A stretch of 5,615 nucleotides of DNA from a virus (IMGVR_UViG_2700989509_000032); one strand, 5' to 3'. Positions 1-5,615 are shown, numbered from the stretch's first letter. Notes: a model not told the origin generated them from the sequence alone. Numbers and translations are program-made.

Positions 1-655
<655 letters not shown>

Positions 656-663
<8 letters not shown>

Positions 664-880
664 GGTGCACCTCCTGCACATCAGCCATGATAATTTTTCC
701 GGCCTTATCCAGTGCCTGATCGGCTTTTAGCTGCACAAATGCTAAATAATGGGAGATGCATTCTGATTCTCTGGCTGCGTGTTTATGCGCCACACCAGCG
801 ATAGCAGAAATCTCAATAAGTGAATCCATCAGCGTTTTGATAGCGTCTACCGCTGCATCAGGCCATGTTGCATTACACAT
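656..880 (-). CDS. Hypothetical small protein, 74 aa, middle gene of the overlapping operon
   Basis: ATG at 878-880 with AGGAGGTG 5 nt upstream. Start overlaps the stop of the upstream gene (ATGTGTAA) and its own stop overlaps the start of the downstream gene (ATGCATAA). No family recognised. Confidence 0.6.
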
Positions 881-1076
881 GTTCCACCTCCTGGCGAATA
901 CGGGCGGCGAATACCATCACGCAGCCATCAGGAGATTGCTGGCGTGCTTCCTGTTCGCTGGTGGCCTCGATGTGAATTACGCGCGGTTGTGCCGTGCTCA
1001 GGGCGATAAAACGCCAGATGTATTTATTCAGGTTGTGCGAGTCCCGCCCTTGCGGGTGTGTGGTATGATTTCTCAT
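873..1076 (-). CDS. DUF987-like small protein (YeeT/YpjJ-like), 67 aa, first gene of the operon
   Basis: Track ORF 873..1271, trimmed to the internal ATG at 1074-1076 (GAGG 5 nt upstream) because the N-terminal extension is junk-like and would run through the operator region. MRNHTTHP...KYIW...GCVMVFAARIRQE resembles recalled DUF987 proteins (MRIHQQHP...KYRW...GVLAVFAERRKD). Confidence 0.5.
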   Translation of the reverse strand: MRNHTTHPQGRDSHNLNKYIWRFIALSTAQPRVIHIEATSEQEARQQSPDGCVMVFAARIRQEVEHV

Positions 1077-1171
1077 AGCTACCTCGATACTCTTGCTATC
1101 GTTGGTGGTTAGACGCCCTGCATGTGTGCCACCACTGCGGGGCGTTGTCGTTTCTGCACCTTGCATCAACA

Positions 1172-1227
1172 AGGTGTTGAACACCAATTTAAGCCCAGGT
1201 GTTAAACACGTCAAGTGTTGAACACTT
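1172..1227. promoter_or_regulatory. Three palindromic operator-like sites (GGTGTT-N-AACACC type) in the divergent intergenic region, overlapping a candidate promoter for the 1275 gene
   Basis: AGGTGTTGAACACCA at 1172-1186, AGGTGTTAAACACG at 1197-1210 and the perfect palindrome AAGTGTTGAACACTT at 1213-1227. A TTGAAC -35-like hexamer inside site 3 (1218-1223) and a CATACT -10-like hexamer at 1239-1244 lie upstream of the ATG at 1275. Confidence 0.45.
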
Positions 1228-2179
1228 ATTTTTTTCCTGCATACTGCATTTGTTTTTTGTAAGGGGTACACAACATGGCGACAAAAGCAGTAAACGCAAA
1301 ATCACAAACAGTTGCGGCAAGGGTTCCGCATGAAGTTATGAACAATGTTGAGGCGGTAAAAATGCCTGGTGAAAGTACAGGGCAGTTTGTAACAGCAGCA
1401 TTAAAGCGAGAAGTTGAATACCGCCAGCGCCGCAAGGCCAAAGAACAGGAGTAACCATCACCAGCGCCGTGGTGTGAGGAACTACGGTGCATTGTTTTAC
1501 AGGGCTGCGCCATGACCAACAAAGAATCAACCAATACACCATCACCGGCACGGAAAAGACAGCGCAGAAAGATAGCGTACGAGCATGAGTCAAACAGATT
1601 CGCGCCCTGTGCGTTTATCCTTGAGAAATTCCTTAAAGAGTACAGGCGCACAAAAATGGGGTCGCATACCTGGAAAACATCGCGGCATGGCAATGTTAAA
1701 GAGCAGGAATAGCCCACCAGCAAGCCAGCATATTCACCATAATGACCCTCAGTTAAACATAGAGTCATTGGTGCAAAGCTGACACATTGCCCACCAGCCG
1801 CAAATCTGGCATTGTTGGCGATGCGTTCAAGTATGTAGCTTTCCCACTGGCGGCCCTCTGCGGTCGCCTTTGTTTTATCCAGAACGAAATCAGACATCAG
1901 ATTGATCAGCACCTGGCGACCTGACAAAATCGCATCAGTCGCGCCACCAGCAAAATTTTTTGCTTTCCGGACAGTGTGACCAACGACATTTTGCAGCAAA
2001 ATATTCTGCATTTCTGGCGTGCTGTAGTAACGGTGATCAGCGCCTTCACTCTGTGCGACCACAACGCTATAATCTGCCTCGTAGACAGTAAGCAATATGG
2101 CGCAGTAGGCTATTCGTTCACAAAGGCGCTCCGGCAACGGGGCGCTTTCTCTTTTTGTAACGGTCAGAGCGTTACACAT
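1226..2179 (-). CDS. Hypothetical protein translationally coupled to the antirepressor-like gene; only the N-terminal ~150 codons look coding, true 3' end uncertain
   Basis: ATG at 2177-2179 with GGAGG 9 nt upstream, overlapping the stop of the 2172..2972 gene (ATGTGTAA). The first 140 codons have 51 G-initial codons (36%); after about plus coordinate 1750 the frame becomes T1-rich and Cys-rich (antisense-like) but stays open to 1226, running antisense through the 1275..1454 gene. Confidence 0.35.
   Translation of the reverse strand: MCNALTVTKRESAPLPERLCERIAYCAILLTVYEADYSVVVAQSEGADHRYYSTPEMQNILLQNVVGHTVRKAKNFAGGATDAILSGRQVLINLMSDFVLDKTKATAEGRQWESYILERIANNARFAAGGQCVSFAPMTLCLTEGHYGEYAGLLVGYSCSLTLPCRDVFQVCDPIFVRLYSLRNFSRINAQGANLFDSCSYAIFLRCLFRAGDGVLVDSLLVMAQPCKTMHRSSSHHGAGDGYSCSLALRRWRYSTSRFNAAVTNCPVLSPGIFTASTLFITSCGTLAATVCDFAFTAFVAMLCTPYKKQMQYAGKK
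1275..1454 (+). CDS. Small ribbon-helix-helix-like DNA-binding protein, 59 aa (putative regulator or antitoxin-like)
   Basis: ATG at 1275 with AAGGGG 8 nt upstream; translation MATKAVNAKSQTVAARVPHEVMNNVEAVKMPGESTGQFVTAALKREVEYRQRRKAKEQE; TAA at 1452-1454. 26 of 59 codons start with G (coding signature), no Cys, basic C-terminal helix. Below the track length cutoff. Conflicts with the antisense long ORF 1226..2179. Confidence 0.5.
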   Translation: MATKAVNAKSQTVAARVPHEVMNNVEAVKMPGESTGQFVTAALKREVEYRQRRKAKEQE

Positions 2180-2972
2180 GGCTGTTTTCCTCCATGCGAC
2201 GGGCTAACCAACGCTGCGAAAGACGAATTAATTCAGCCTTCCGCTGGTGGTAGTCCTGGCCTAACTCAATCAGCGTGATATTGCTCTGCTCAAGGTAAGA
2301 AAGGTGCTCAAGCTGCAACGTGCTCATGTGGTCGCGTGGTTCGCCTGTAATGCCGTTCGCCAGTGCCCACTGTTTTGCAGTCATGCCACCCAGCACGATA
2401 CGCGCCAGCATGTTCGCTTCCGTGGTGTAGTGGTGCTGGAGTGTGTTTTTACCCAGTTCAGCCCGGTACGCCTCCAGCGCGGCACACATTGGCTTAAAGT
2501 AGCTGGCAACTGTGATACGGGCTTTCAGTTCCCGGCGTAACGCTGCGGAACGAACAGGCGCAACCTTGTGTAGCTCCTCCTCGCATTTGATAAAGTACTG
2601 GCGAACGGCGCGGCCCTGTTCGGTACGTTCGACCATCGCCAGTTCTTTCGCCATGTTCACTGTGATGATGTACTCAAGAGCGGTTTGCTGGCGAGATTTT
2701 GCGCTCACCGGATCGGGTCGGCTCAAATATTCAACAACCTCATAATCCACGCCTTCCGTGAACCCGTATTCTTCAATGCGCCCCTTGATCCACGAACGGA
2801 AAACGCGCCCTACACCTAACGCCTTATGTAACGCTCTGGCGCTAACAATAGTGGTTTCACTCCCGCCAATAACGCCGGAAATAATCGGGATAATTTCGCC
2901 GAAATTTTGCAGATTCTGGTTTTCAGGCCGAACGAAGCCCCGCCCCTGTACGGGCGTTTTTGGAAATTTCAT
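2172..2972 (-). CDS. Phage antirepressor-like protein (AntA/Rha-type N-terminal domain), 266 aa
   Basis: ATG at 2970-2972 with AGGAG 5 nt upstream. N-terminal region ...ARALHKALGVGRVFRSWIKGRIEEYGFTEGVDYEVV... and ...ITVNMAKELAMVERTEQGRAVRQYFIKCEEEL carry the recalled signature of antirepressor (AntA/Rha/Bro-N-like) domains. Family call is from memory. Confidence 0.75.
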   Translation of the reverse strand: MKFPKTPVQGRGFVRPENQNLQNFGEIIPIISGVIGGSETTIVSARALHKALGVGRVFRSWIKGRIEEYGFTEGVDYEVVEYLSRPDPVSAKSRQQTALEYIITVNMAKELAMVERTEQGRAVRQYFIKCEEELHKVAPVRSAALRRELKARITVASYFKPMCAALEAYRAELGKNTLQHHYTTEANMLARIVLGGMTAKQWALANGITGEPRDHMSTLQLEHLSYLEQSNITLIELGQDYHQRKAELIRLSQRWLARRMEENSHV

Positions 2973-3023
2973 AAAAACTCCTGCTATCGAATTAAGTTAC
3001 TTTTATTTGCTGGTGGATAGCTG

Positions 3024-3049: not shown

Positions 3050-3247
3050 TCAGGTAGCTGTTCCGCGTGATTCCGCAATACGCTGATTAATCCACTCGTC
3101 AATTTCACTCTCAACGAAAGCAATAGCTCGCGAGCCAATTTTAACTGATGCAGGAAATTTACCTTGCCCCATAAGGCGATAAATCCATGCCTTGCTATAT
3201 CCAGTTCTACGCTGAACTTCTGTTAAACGAATAAGCGTATTTGACAT
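3050..3247 (-). CDS. alpA: AlpA/Vis-family prophage transcriptional regulator / excisionase-like HTH protein, 65 aa
   Basis: ATG at 3245-3247 with GAGG 7 nt upstream. MSNTLIRLTEVQRRTGYSKAWIYRLMGQGKFPASVKIGSRAIAFVESEIDEWINQRIAESRGTAT carries the AlpA-family hallmark E-x-EIDEW-x-x-QR and an HTH (TGYSKAWIYRLM). Confidence 0.9.
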   Translation of the reverse strand: MSNTLIRLTEVQRRTGYSKAWIYRLMGQGKFPASVKIGSRAIAFVESEIDEWINQRIAESRGTAT

Positions 3248-3315
3248 ATATTTACCTCATAACGTCTACTCAATTTGACGAGGTAATCATGGCACAGAAA
3301 TAACGAATATTTTCA

Positions 3316-3460
3316 TACCCTCAGGCCTAATGGTTACCGGAAGGAAATCTACCCTAAGGGTGATGGTAATCGGGAGGAAATCTACCCTAAGGGTGATGGT
3401 AAAATTGACGGGGAAGATAAAAAAATACCCTCAGGGTAACAGTAAATCACCCTCAGGGTA
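3316..3460. promoter_or_regulatory. Cluster of four complete and one partial ACCCT-N-AGGGT palindromes upstream of alpA; candidate operator or iteron array
   Basis: ACCCTAAGGGT at 3351-3361 and 3383-3393, TACCCTCAGGGTA at 3426-3438, ACCCTCAGGGT at 3449-3459, plus half-site TACCCTCAGG at 3316-3325. All lie in the 227-bp gap between the alpA start (3247) and the stop of the 3475..4272 gene. Confidence 0.5.
3339..3402. repeat. Tandem direct repeat, 2 x 32 bp, each unit containing an ACCCTAAGGGT palindrome
   Basis: 3339-3370 GGAAGGAAATCTACCCTAAGGGTGATGGTAAT and 3371-3402 CGGGAGGAAATCTACCCTAAGGGTGATGGTAA are near-identical head-to-tail copies. Confidence 0.85.
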
Positions 3461-3474
3461 TGCGGTATGGTGCG

Positions 3475-4272
3475 TTAATCCGGCTTTGCGTTCTTTTGGC
3501 TGTTGTCTCGGTTAATAGGGCAGGCAGTCCTCTCTATGAGCGTTGCAAGTGCATTACTTGCCCCCCACTGCTTAAGCTCCCTGGTTATCGCTTCTTGATT
3601 TCCCCTGGTGGCAAAATCATTTTCTGGATCGTAATTGGCCCACTCTCTGTTTCTAATCTCAATAGCCTTAGCTAATGGGTCTTTATCCCAGTATTTATAT
3701 AAGTGTATCGGGCGCTCTTGCTCTAACTGCTCTATCCTTGCCCTTAACTCTGCGTTTTCTTTTTCCAGCATTGCGATTTGGGATAATAAATCATCCTCTG
3801 TACGCAACTCTTTCTTTTCAATATCGCGTCCTTGTGCCTCGTCATTTTCAGAAGAGTTAGCGCCTTCCAGCTTCGTTAACGCGTCAAGGACATCGGGAAA
3901 AATTGAGAAAATTTCACCCCTTATAAATCCAATGTTCTCAAATTCGGGATCTTCCCAATAACCGGACACCAGAAAACCATTTTCATCCCTCTCACCAGGT
4001 AAACAACCACGTTTCCGAACCGCATTCAGATTTCTATAAAGAACATCATTATCAAATTCATCCCGATACGGGTTACAAAAAGATTCCAACAGCTTAAATT
4101 CATTTACTGTGTACAGGCGGATATGTTCTCCGCTTATTCTCCTGAGTATCCAAGTTATGACATCTGAAACATCATAATCATCACCAGCGACCTTAAGCAC
4201 GACCTCAAGAAATTCACGTAAAGAAATAAAATCTTTTTTGTATTCGTTTAATTCGGCATGAATATCAATCAT
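3475..4272 (-). CDS. Hypothetical protein, 265 aa, low-GC orphan gene between integrase and alpA; acidic with a central coiled-coil segment
   Basis: Track ORF 3475..4278 begins with GTG; the ATG two codons in (4270-4272) is preferred because GAGG lies 7 nt upstream (MIDIHAELNEYKKDF...). Sampled 60-bp blocks are about 33-40% GC against about 55-60% in int and the antirepressor gene. Coiled-coil-like LLSQIAMLEKENAELRARIEQLEQERP and an acidic linker. No family recognised. Confidence 0.7.
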   Translation of the reverse strand: MIDIHAELNEYKKDFISLREFLEVVLKVAGDDYDVSDVITWILRRISGEHIRLYTVNEFKLLESFCNPYRDEFDNDVLYRNLNAVRKRGCLPGERDENGFLVSGYWEDPEFENIGFIRGEIFSIFPDVLDALTKLEGANSSENDEAQGRDIEKKELRTEDDLLSQIAMLEKENAELRARIEQLEQERPIHLYKYWDKDPLAKAIEIRNREWANYDPENDFATRGNQEAITRELKQWGASNALATLIERTACPINRDNSQKNAKPD

Positions 4273-4400
4273 ACGCACACCTCAGCGTCCTCTACTGTAG
4301 TGGCTGTACCAGTCCGTCGAGGTGTACGGATTTTCGGGAGCGACCCTAGACACAGCCTTTTCTTTCGTCGCTCAAAGTCTACTACTGTATACTCAACCAG

Positions 4401-5615
4401 TCACCCGCATTTTCCGAACTCACCATGCACCACATTTCCGCCATGCTCGAGCGAATCCATATAATCAGCGTACCACTGAAGCATTTCCCGCCGCCCATCC
4501 AGATATTGCGCATGGTTGTATGTGCCACGAATTGAGTTTTTATCGACGTGCGCAAGCTGTGTCTCTATCCACGCGGTGTTATAGCCCTGCTCATGCAAAA
4601 TGGTGCTCATAGTGTGCCGGAAGCCATGACCAGTAACCTTTCCGTTATAGCCGATGCGTTTAAATACTTGGTTTATGCTAGCCTCGCTCATTGTTTTCCT
4701 TGGATCATTACGGCCGGGAAACATAAGCGGATAATTGCCAGTTAGTTCTTTAATCTGCCCAATAAGCGAAAGAGCCTGCTCAGACAAAGGCACTACATGA
4801 GGGCGACGCATTTTCATCCGTGAAGCAGGTATCTCCCAGATAGCCTTGTTGAGATCGATTTCATCCCATAATGCACCGCGCAGTTCGCCAGTCCGCAAAC
4901 CGGTGATAATCAGTAAACGAGCCGCCATAACAACCAATGCACTTCCTGAGTAACTGGACAATGCCTTGAAAAAATCAGGTAATTCTTTGGCTGTGAGGAA
5001 AGGATAATGATTAGATTCATGACCTTGCATCGCGCTGGTGAGATCCGGTGCAGGGTTATACTCAGCACGTCCAGTGACAATTGCATAGCGGAAAACTTCC
5101 CCACATCGCTGCCTCACTTTTTTGGCTTTTTCGGTAGCACCGCGCCCCTCGATGCGCCGCAGCACATTCAGCAGTTCAAGTGGTTTGATTTCGGCGATTG
5201 GTTTTTTGCCAATGTAAGGGAACACATCTTTGTTGAAGGCTTCGAGGATGTCTGAAGCATAACCAGCAGACCATTTTTTTAATTTGCTGCTGTGCCACTC
5301 AAGGGCAATATCTTTGAAGGTGTTGTTTAACTGCGTTTCCCGGGCAATCTTTTCCTCTCGTTTCGCTTCCATCGGATCGATACCCCCAGCGATACCCCTT
5401 TTAGCTTCTTCACGTTTTGCACGAGCATCAGCCAAGGTAACTTCAGGATACACACCTAGTGCTAACAGCTTCTCTTTACCAGCTACACGATACTTGAAGC
5501 GCCAATATTTTCCTCCACTAGGTTTTACCAAGAGATACAGACCACCACCATCAGCCAGCTTGTAAGCCTTCTCTTTTGGCTTGGCAGTGTCTATTTGACG
5601 GGCATTGAGTTTCAC
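4401..5615 (-). CDS. int: P4-type tyrosine recombinase (integrase), 404 codons in window; N-terminus at the window edge and possibly incomplete
   Basis: N-terminal KPKEKAYKLADGGGLYLLVKPSGGKYWRFKYR is the hallmark of the P4-integrase arm-binding domain. Catalytic-domain motifs are present: HxxR (GHGFRHTMSTIL) and the tyrosine region (RGTYNHAQY). First in-window codon is GTG at 5613-5615, so the true start may be just outside. Confidence 0.9.
   Translation of the reverse strand: MKLNARQIDTAKPKEKAYKLADGGGLYLLVKPSGGKYWRFKYRVAGKEKLLALGVYPEVTLADARAKREEAKRGIAGGIDPMEAKREEKIARETQLNNTFKDIALEWHSSKLKKWSAGYASDILEAFNKDVFPYIGKKPIAEIKPLELLNVLRRIEGRGATEKAKKVRQRCGEVFRYAIVTGRAEYNPAPDLTSAMQGHESNHYPFLTAKELPDFFKALSSYSGSALVVMAARLLIITGLRTGELRGALWDEIDLNKAIWEIPASRMKMRRPHVVPLSEQALSLIGQIKELTGNYPLMFPGRNDPRKTMSEASINQVFKRIGYNGKVTGHGFRHTMSTILHEQGYNTAWIETQLAHVDKNSIRGTYNHAQYLDGRREMLQWYADYMDSLEHGGNVVHGEFGKCG

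Follow-up and report, generated by a model that had tools for sequence, protein, structure and literature searches.

In the P4 genome (X51522), the gene for an 88-amino-acid (aa) AlpA-like protein, ORF88, is followed by an open reading frame (ORF) of 197 codons whose ATG (8761-8767) overlaps the ORF88 stop codon and which extends to 8168; nested in frame in this longer ORF is a gene for 65 aa that has a Shine-Dalgarno (SD) sequence of its own (ATG at 8365), and the two are eta and kil. According to the summary of Forti et al. 1999 (J Bacteriol 181:5225) given in PMC10111431, eta is coupled to the alpA homologue and its translation prevents premature termination, a constitutive promoter, seqA, and the CI RNA are located inside eta, and Kil is a truncated form of Eta. 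PMC10111431 itself places eta in the Bro protein network, whose genes host immunity RNAs. Here, we describe a comparable arrangement in IMGVR_UViG_2700989509_000032, a stretch of viral DNA of 5,615 nucleotides (nt) that was analyzed as a whole and is termed the window; it is a section of an integrative island adjoining tRNA-Thr and proA in E. coli. The element in question appears in the ORF listing of the window as a minus-strand ORF of 317 aa with an ATG start (2179 to 1226). It runs antisense through two plus-strand genes, at 1275-1454 and 1512-1712, of which the original prediction for this sequence had named the first and left out the second. Evolution has kept the frame of this long ORF open, not its amino-acid sequence. 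We consider it probable that the long ORF is a frameshifted allele of a read-through ORF of the P4 eta/kil type, in which repressor genes are embedded antisense with their wobble positions aligned. An antisense-embedded variant of such an ORF is not described in the literature searched.

The likeness to eta and kil extends over position, coupling, and the C-terminal domain. As in P4, a long ORF leads from the stop codon of an AlpA-like gene across the region of immunity functions and over an internal promoter, which in the window is a predicted one, and in relatives of the window with eight A residues at a particular homopolymer it ends in frame in a Kil/Icd-like gene of approximately 65 aa that has its own SD sequence. 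Both C-termini match NF033153 (phage_ICD_like), P4 Eta with residues 144 to 191 (E=1.2e-20) and the 435-aa protein of the relatives (P0001) with residues 387 to 430 (E=5e-19). The window differs from P4 in that its long ORF is coupled to antA rather than to alpA and in that the frame is broken at the A-run. In the start region (2172-2193, minus strand), the SD sequence GGAGG (2189-2193) is located 9 nt upstream of the ATG (2179-2177), which overlaps the antA stop codon TAA (2174-2172) within ATGTGTAA (2172-2179); the good SD sequence and the coupling to the antirepressor gene proposed originally are thus borne out. The same overlap (-7) was found in 17 loci. An upstream gene of the antA or alpA type was identified in 46 loci, and in 44 of these the ORF began between -7 and +58 nt from its stop codon, the offset being -7 for antA and +10 to +58 nt for alpA.

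Conservation of the open frame without amino-acid constraint

For comparison, 89 loci were fetched among approximately 1,350 E. coli hits. The sample of 80 IMG/VR loci, 68 of them distinct, was retrieved by the 85-aa Icd-like domain alone, a procedure chosen so as not to favor loci with a long ORF already called; the loci are related and mosaic. In 51 of the 68 distinct loci, the Icd frame was open for at least 200 codons upstream, and the Icd-frame ORF fully spanned the antisense gene of the YlcI/YnfO family (ylcI, at 1275-1454 in the window) in 51 of the 57 loci possessing one. Within the 999 nt upstream of the Icd domain, most loci contained 0 to 3 stop codons in the Icd frame versus 11 to 30 in each other frame. 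In relatives, approximately 1 kb of the long frame was free of stop codons, versus 13 and 19 stop codons in the two remaining frames, which shows that its openness is not due to chance. The stop-to-stop lengths in the Icd frame covered 91 to 653 codons, with dozens of values from many mosaic architectures. The exceptions were frameshifted in the manner of the window: four loci (L073, L079, L082, and L003) carried the long ORF in another frame, where it ended 19 to 32 nt before the icd ATG, and in L046 and the window it ended approximately 150 to 170 nt before it. These comparisons were made with stop counts per frame, used instead of the indels in low-identity BLAST alignments, which were not multiples of three and were deemed unreliable.

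The third codon positions of both plus-strand genes coincide with those of the long ORF, and stop codons on the antisense strand can therefore be avoided by synonymous choice. When synonymous codons were resampled from the codon usage of int, antA, and alpA, the probability of an open antisense frame, P(open), was 0.08 to 0.8 for a single small gene. The frame was open in all of 12 YlcI lineages (less than 75% identity), with a product P(open) of 10^-6.2, and in all of six lineages of the 66-aa gene at 1512-1712, with a product of 10^-1.7, figures which overstate independence because the loci are related and mosaic. The direction of the result is clear despite this relatedness.

The encoded residues behave differently from the frame. 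In composition, the first 140 codons of the long ORF are rich in codons starting with G (36%, versus 15% starting with T), and codons 141 to 317 shift to 35% T-initial codons with 6.8% Cys, 9.6% Ser, 6.8% Phe, and 1.1% Glu. The change after approximately 140 codons is as originally described; the term "coding-like" used for the first part holds for composition only, as nothing in these codons indicates purifying selection on amino acids. Variant alleles were distributed 42/41/49 over the three codon positions, and the synonymous fraction was 0.27 versus 0.23 for random changes; with the same method, values of 0.52 for antA, 0.48 for alpA, 0.52 for icd, and 0.62 for int were obtained. Neither the 317-aa product nor its first 140 aa matched a family in Pfam, PHROGs, or NCBIfam, and the first 155 aa had no match among PDB sequences at E<=1. 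An AlphaFold2 model of these 155 aa reached a predicted local distance difference test (pLDDT) value of 39.8 and a predicted template modeling score (pTM) of 0.27, which is weak evidence given the shallow alignment of 10 rows. Phage_ASH (PF10554) matched neither the ORF nor its first 140 aa, even at E<=10, and did match the P4 cI ORF (4e-16) and L003 (6.5e-11). A blastn search of 1200-2250 against 50,697 phage records was without a match, and Rfam gave no credible match in the ORF, either with the whole window or with 1200-2250 and lax filters, the only results being at chance level (e.g., ctRNA_p42d, 15 bits). The near-random synonymous fraction, the missing family and PDB matches, and the poor model together mean that the frame is conserved and the amino acids are not.

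In the overlaps, the protein-level constraint is on the other strand. Among 27 variants of the 59-aa YlcI, the divergence per site was 0.28/0.175/0.43 at plus-strand positions 1/2/3, and this order, with position 2 lowest and position 3 highest, is the pattern of a plus-strand gene; between close variants, 13 of 13 changes were synonymous in the plus frame. The 66-aa gene showed a weaker form of the same pattern. The original prediction had presented the two strands as an either/or, a conserved long ORF making the ribbon-helix-helix (RHH) ORF at 1275-1454 spurious. This does not hold, because conservation extends both to the long frame on the minus strand and to the RHH gene on the plus strand: besides the 13 of 13 synonymous changes and the frame open in 12 of 12 lineages, operator-like repeats co-vary with YlcI (see below). 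Its suggestion of a long overlapping gene pair came closest of the three options it gave; both frames are indeed conserved, but the amino acids of the minus strand are unconstrained.

The main rival to the eta-like interpretation is a functional multidomain protein of the Bro-network or Eta type with an Icd-like C-terminus, whose sequence matters and whose DNA is truly shared with two antisense genes. We regard this as unlikely. It would account for the good SD sequence, the coupled start, the G-rich first codon positions of codons 1 to 140, the conserved open frame, the 435-aa "Icd-like" proteins annotated by NCBI, and the position of P4 eta in the Bro protein network (PMC10111431). However, it does not agree with a synonymous fraction at the random expectation and equal variation at the three codon positions, or with divergence in the overlaps that is patterned by the codons of the plus strand. 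Between islands, segments in the middle of the ORF are freely swapped, deleted, and inserted; outside the Icd domain there is no Pfam, PHROG, NCBIfam, or PDB match; the low pLDDT points in the same direction within the limit of its alignment; and 1713-2171 is unannotated in current RefSeq.

The A-run and the frameshifted allele

The homopolymer at which the frame is broken is located at 1229-1235 on the minus strand, between two predicted divergent promoters, and consists of seven A (A7; seven T on the plus strand) in the window and of eight A (A8) in near-identical genomes. Between 1000 and 2400, its length, seven versus eight, is the sole difference between the window and L001 (NZ_CP176489), which has 99.9% identity to the window. 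The A7 frame reads GGA AAA AAA TAA, and its stop codon (1228-1226) precedes the icd ATG by approximately 150 nt; relative to the long ORF, Icd is in the -1 frame. In the A8 allele, this TAA is bypassed and an ORF of 435 aa results, which continues through 873-1228 (minus strand) and stops at 873, ending in the Icd/Kil-like domain. The ORF thus ends at 1226 because the run has seven A rather than eight, and 1226-2179 corresponds to the 5' three quarters of the 435-aa ORF. In the homologous islands, where the native stop codon was to be sought, the ORF with A8 runs to the stop codon at 873.

When proteins were searched with the 317 aa, most of those retrieved had 435 aa; they were identical to the query over its whole length (100%), present on hundreds of contigs, and named "host cell division inhibitor Icd-like protein" by NCBI. 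Mosaic relatives of 406 to 528 aa were retrieved as well. The exact 317-aa product was found on 11 to 14 contigs only. All 11 other fetched loci carrying the module had A8 with a plain in-frame ORF; the shifted arrangement is not conserved among these relatives, and the nesting of the short gene in the frame of the long ORF, which holds in A8 relatives, fails in the window. The A7 allele is either a minority allele or a homopolymer sequencing error, and such an error may be its source. Its outcome may be weaker read-through, rescue by slippage on A_AAA_AAA, or nothing beyond a sequencing error.

A slippery heptamer of the type X_XXY_YYZ is present in the zero frame (GG A_AAA_AAA TAA), and a -1 shift would lead into ...KKISVQ... 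and Icd. On one reading, A7 would be deliberate, the run and the adjoining TAA forming a site of programmed -1 frameshifting or transcriptional slippage that sets the ratio of a short product to an Eta-Icd fusion. In favor of this, the shift needed to reach Icd is exactly -1, and the 317-aa allele is recurrent, with 11 to 14 contigs. We nevertheless find this reading most improbable in view of A8 and a plain in-frame ORF in the 11 other module loci and of the hundreds of contigs with the 435-aa form. Moreover, of three inspected occurrences of the 317-aa form, two are on contigs broken at the A-run, suggestive of difficulties with the homopolymer, and the location of the tract, just upstream of the predicted Icd-ward -35 and in the spacer of the predicted ylcI-ward promoter, could explain its conservation.

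These results also bear on the ideas that the 3' end of the ORF was lost through insertion of the RHH module or that the locus is misassembled. The same stretch is present in 78 complete E. coli genomes, and this excludes an assembly artefact on a large scale, leaving an error in the homopolymer as the possible part of that suggestion. The ORF is indeed truncated in the window, but by a 1-nt homopolymer difference, and a loss of the 3' end through the RHH insertion is not supported: the ORF of the relatives reads through the RHH module in frame to the Icd-like domain. A formerly shorter gene following antA, deprived of its native 3' end by the module and extended by accidental read-on, would fit the change in composition at about codon 140 and the fact that the RHH cassette occupies the place of isrK and C4 in P4, L003, and L005. 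We rate this origin as highly unlikely, as no relative has a stop codon near 1760, the frame runs on in phase as far as Icd in all of 12 divergent YlcI types, in short and long versions and with or without the 66-aa gene, and the actual truncation is located at the A-run.

The antisense cassette and the conserved nucleotide blocks

The plus-strand gene at 1275-1454 encodes a 59-aa RHH protein of the YlcI/YnfO family (NCBIfam YlcI_YnfO_N NF041551, E=2e-16, 59.7 bits at a cut-off of 30; phrog_949, E=4.7e-22), embedded antisense in the long ORF with coinciding third codon positions. The 66-aa gene (1512-1712, plus strand; phrog_21027, E=8e-32) is antisense to the long ORF in the same phase. The YlcI/YnfO gene is probably the immunity repressor; a literature search on YlcI/YnfO retrieved nothing about function. 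A predicted promoter, TTGACG-17-TAAATT (1186-1214, minus strand), is directed toward icd from inside the long ORF, just upstream of the Icd gene, which makes it a positional analogue of P4 PLE; a -35-like hexamer, TTGAC or TTGAA, is found at the same place in divergent variants. Around it are three operator-like 13-mers (1172-1184, 1197-1209, and 1213-1225) with the core GTGTTnAACAC, one beside the ylcI-ward -10, one abutting the -35, and one downstream. The repeat sequence differs per YlcI class, and the layout of three sites is unchanged across loci. This co-variation has the appearance of a repressor with its operators and suggests immunity specificity. A terminator-like hairpin was observed between ylcI and the 66-aa gene (1464-1490, plus strand); it is conserved in L002 to L004 and occurs twice in L002.

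Downstream of the promoter, the nested kil/icd-like gene (873-1076, minus strand) encodes 67 aa, with the SD sequence GAGG at 1082-1085, an ATG at 1076, and a match to NF033153 (E=3.8e-20). It is called as a gene in L087, and its synonymous fraction is 0.52. In the icd leader (approximately 1100-1135, minus strand), between the predicted promoter and the icd SD sequence, CGCCCCGCAGTGG...CATGCAGGGCG forms a candidate hairpin, the stems of which differ between islands and would still pair.

In P4 (8420-8692) and in the Ash-type islands L003 (1131-1316) and L005 (1743-1931), Rfam identified isrK and C4, and in L003 and L005 these RNAs are located exactly where the window has the antisense ylcI cassette. 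Neither RNA was found in the window, even at E<=10, or in L002 and L004, in which the antisense ylcI cassette likewise takes up this position. The Pfam family Phage_ASH was built on the old "cI" ORF of P4, which overlaps the CI RNA.

Two nucleotide blocks inside the coordinates of the long ORF are conserved in many otherwise different islands. Block A (2045-2158, plus strand) comprises a -35 TTCACT (2045-2050), a -10 TATAAT (2068-2073), and a terminator stem (2123-2148) followed by a T-run, the core at 2100-2158 being the plus-strand terminator hairpin with its T-run. At a fixed distance before this hairpin, all three sequence families have a -10-like hexamer, TATAAT in the window, TAAAAT, or, in the majority, TGATATAAT, and 29 distinct relatives have kept both the -10 and the terminator. 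Judged by these signals, block A suggests a plus-strand antisense small RNA (sRNA) of approximately 80 nt covering ORF codons 8 to 33, roughly; the unit matched no Rfam family. Block B (1779-1878, plus strand) contains a Chi site on the minus strand (1791-1798), a plus-strand hairpin resembling an intrinsic terminator (1849-1868), and then TTTGTTTT. The Chi site is invariant, and in 17 of 39 sequences the hairpin shows a compensatory GC<->CG change. An interpretation of block B as a P4-like CI RNA was rejected, since in the Ash-type relatives C4 and isrK are found at another place, downstream of block B. When the candidate plus-strand RNAs were compared with the rest of the window for pairing in trans, only 9-mers at chance rate were obtained. 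Conservation of both blocks at the nucleotide level is a plausible reason why the conserved stretches look protein-like.

The Chi sequence (GCTGGTGG) occurs six times in the window, at 957-964, 2243-2250, and 3009-3016 on the plus strand and at 1714-1721, 1791-1798, and 1944-1951 on the minus strand, versus 0.19 expected, a number reached in none of 200 shuffles. Three of the sites are within 240 bp inside the long ORF. Eighty related loci (L007-L086) contained on average 1.07 Chi sites per kb, and P4 has none.

A further rival reading is that the long ORF has no meaning as an ORF, being open by chance or through antisense compositional bias, and that only DNA and RNA elements (Chi, terminators, antisense sRNA) are conserved. 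The missing amino-acid constraint would agree with this, a Chi site, a promoter, and terminators of the plus strand can account for blocks A and B, and a single small gene may well leave its antisense frame open by chance, as the P(open) range given above indicates. We nevertheless find this reading very unlikely: approximately 435 codons are free of stop codons against 13 to 20 in each other frame, dozens of architectures are alike in this respect, the open frame in every case sharing the phase of Icd or stopping shortly ahead of it, and the start is consistently coupled to the upstream gene.

The remaining genes of the window are all on the minus strand: int (4401-5615), a 267-aa gene (3475-4278), alpA (3050-3247; Pfam Phage_AlpA), antA (2172-2972; Pfam AntA), and, beyond the long ORF, the Icd-like gene (873-1271). 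Further small genes follow and then, as seen in L001, a DUF5906 primase. Rfam identified isrC at the left edge (5-127, minus strand; 150 bits) and, in the interval that separates int from the 267-aa gene, the int-alpA RNA motif (4289-4356, minus strand; 45.5 bits). The island is of the P4 or phage-inducible chromosomal island (PICI) type, integrated at tRNA-Thr beside proA. Upstream of alpA, at 3315-3460, an array of five ACCCT(A/C)AGG(G) repeats that includes a 33-nt tandem duplication was observed and may be an array of binding sites.

Annotation of the region is in conflict. In many NCBI records, 873-2179 (L001 3874-5181) is one 435-aa Icd-like protein; current RefSeq has a 135-aa Icd-like protein and two plus-strand genes in the same place and leaves 1713-2171, a gap of 460 bp, empty. 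Kindred islands are annotated with "ash family" or "BRO-N" pseudogenes. An eta/kil-type long ORF with antisense genes explains this recurrent conflict in thousands of E. coli genomes.

Proposed role and comparison with known systems

By analogy with P4, translation of the long ORF would have an antitermination role, and the passage of ribosomes along it would matter rather than the encoded protein. Transcripts from an upstream, induced promoter on the alpA/antA side would be translated continuously over approximately 1.3 kb, across the cassette and into or up to icd. Such translation would shield them from premature, probably Rho-dependent, termination, so that they could reach the downstream icd-like and replication genes. 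The minus-strand RNA at 1299-1428, with 28 to 33% C and 13 to 18% G, is by its composition a plausible candidate for a Rho loading region if left untranslated; this stretch and the conserved open frame are indirect evidence for such a role of translation. The internal repressible promoter, the putative analogue of PLE, would express only the short Icd-like gene under the control of YlcI. The RNA immunity of P4 (seqA/isrK and CI/C4) would be replaced by the opposite-strand cassette of the RHH protein YlcI/YnfO and the 66-aa protein, placed such that wobble positions coincide and with a choice at synonymous sites that keeps stop codons out of the antisense frame.

Several points weigh against this proposal. 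The P4 model is taken second-hand, as PMC10111431 summarizes Forti et al. 1999, and translation of the long ORF, dependence on Rho, and the promoters are all inferred. The coding-like composition of the first 140 codons, rich in G-initial codons, fits poorly with an ORF whose sequence is irrelevant, unless it is the relic of an older gene. Three Icd-bearing islands (L005, L065, and L075) have no long ORF at all. The window allele and six of the 57 ylcI-type loci break the frame, from which it follows that the in-frame fusion is not indispensable. The relatedness of the loci, as stated, makes the product probabilities appear stronger than they are.

More tentatively, the arrangement could constitute a switch that has not been described. 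In it, repressor genes would be placed antisense inside a leader of several hundred codons that must stay translatable, their synonymous sites being selected for an opposite strand free of stop codons, and the translated read-through from alpA/antA would, on induction, collide head-on with expression of the repressor. A cis-antisense sRNA and two orientation-specific terminators would add control, and the A7 and A8 alleles could uncouple or couple leader and Icd. We consider a switch of this design possible, though doubtful as a whole.

With the eta/kil-type reading, the P4 principle of an ORF kept for being translated, not for its product, is extended to a large island family, and in the ylcI-type islands a protein repressor cassette of the opposite strand has taken the place of the RNA immunity module. 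If true, the locus would offer a clear example from nature in which synonymous sites of real genes are selected for nothing but an open antisense frame, and it would provide a model, open to testing, of the way in which satellite islands get past their own immunity when induced.

Among the known systems, P4 eta is the closest and differs in scale and content: it has 197 codons and carries isrK/seqA and C4/CI on its sense strand, whereas the long ORFs of the window family have 300 to 650 codons, contain two protein genes on the opposite strand, and lack C4, isrK, and a Phage_ASH match. The "Bro zone" described for enterobacterial PICI and HE-PICI satellites (PMC10111431) has the same order of int, alpA, a gene of the Bro/AntA type, and the replication module; the text of PMC10111431 makes no mention of antisense protein genes inside ORFs of this zone. 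The immI region of P1 (c4 RNA-icd-ant) shares with the window an Icd-like cell division inhibitor domain and a gene of the antirepressor family. In P1, translation of icd is needed for expression of the downstream gene. The window differs from immI in that it has no C4 RNA, antA is located upstream rather than downstream of icd, and replication genes (DUF5906 primase) follow. Finally, translation of a leader ORF governs Rho-dependent polarity or downstream expression in tnaC-tnaA and, with the tap leader peptide and the antisense RNA CopA, in plasmid R1. The window would resemble such leaders in that ribosomes on the leader decide how far downstream expression reaches and in that a cis-antisense sRNA-like unit, block A, is located near the leader start; yet tnaC and tap comprise tens of codons, whereas the leader in the window comprises hundreds of codons and overlaps real genes.

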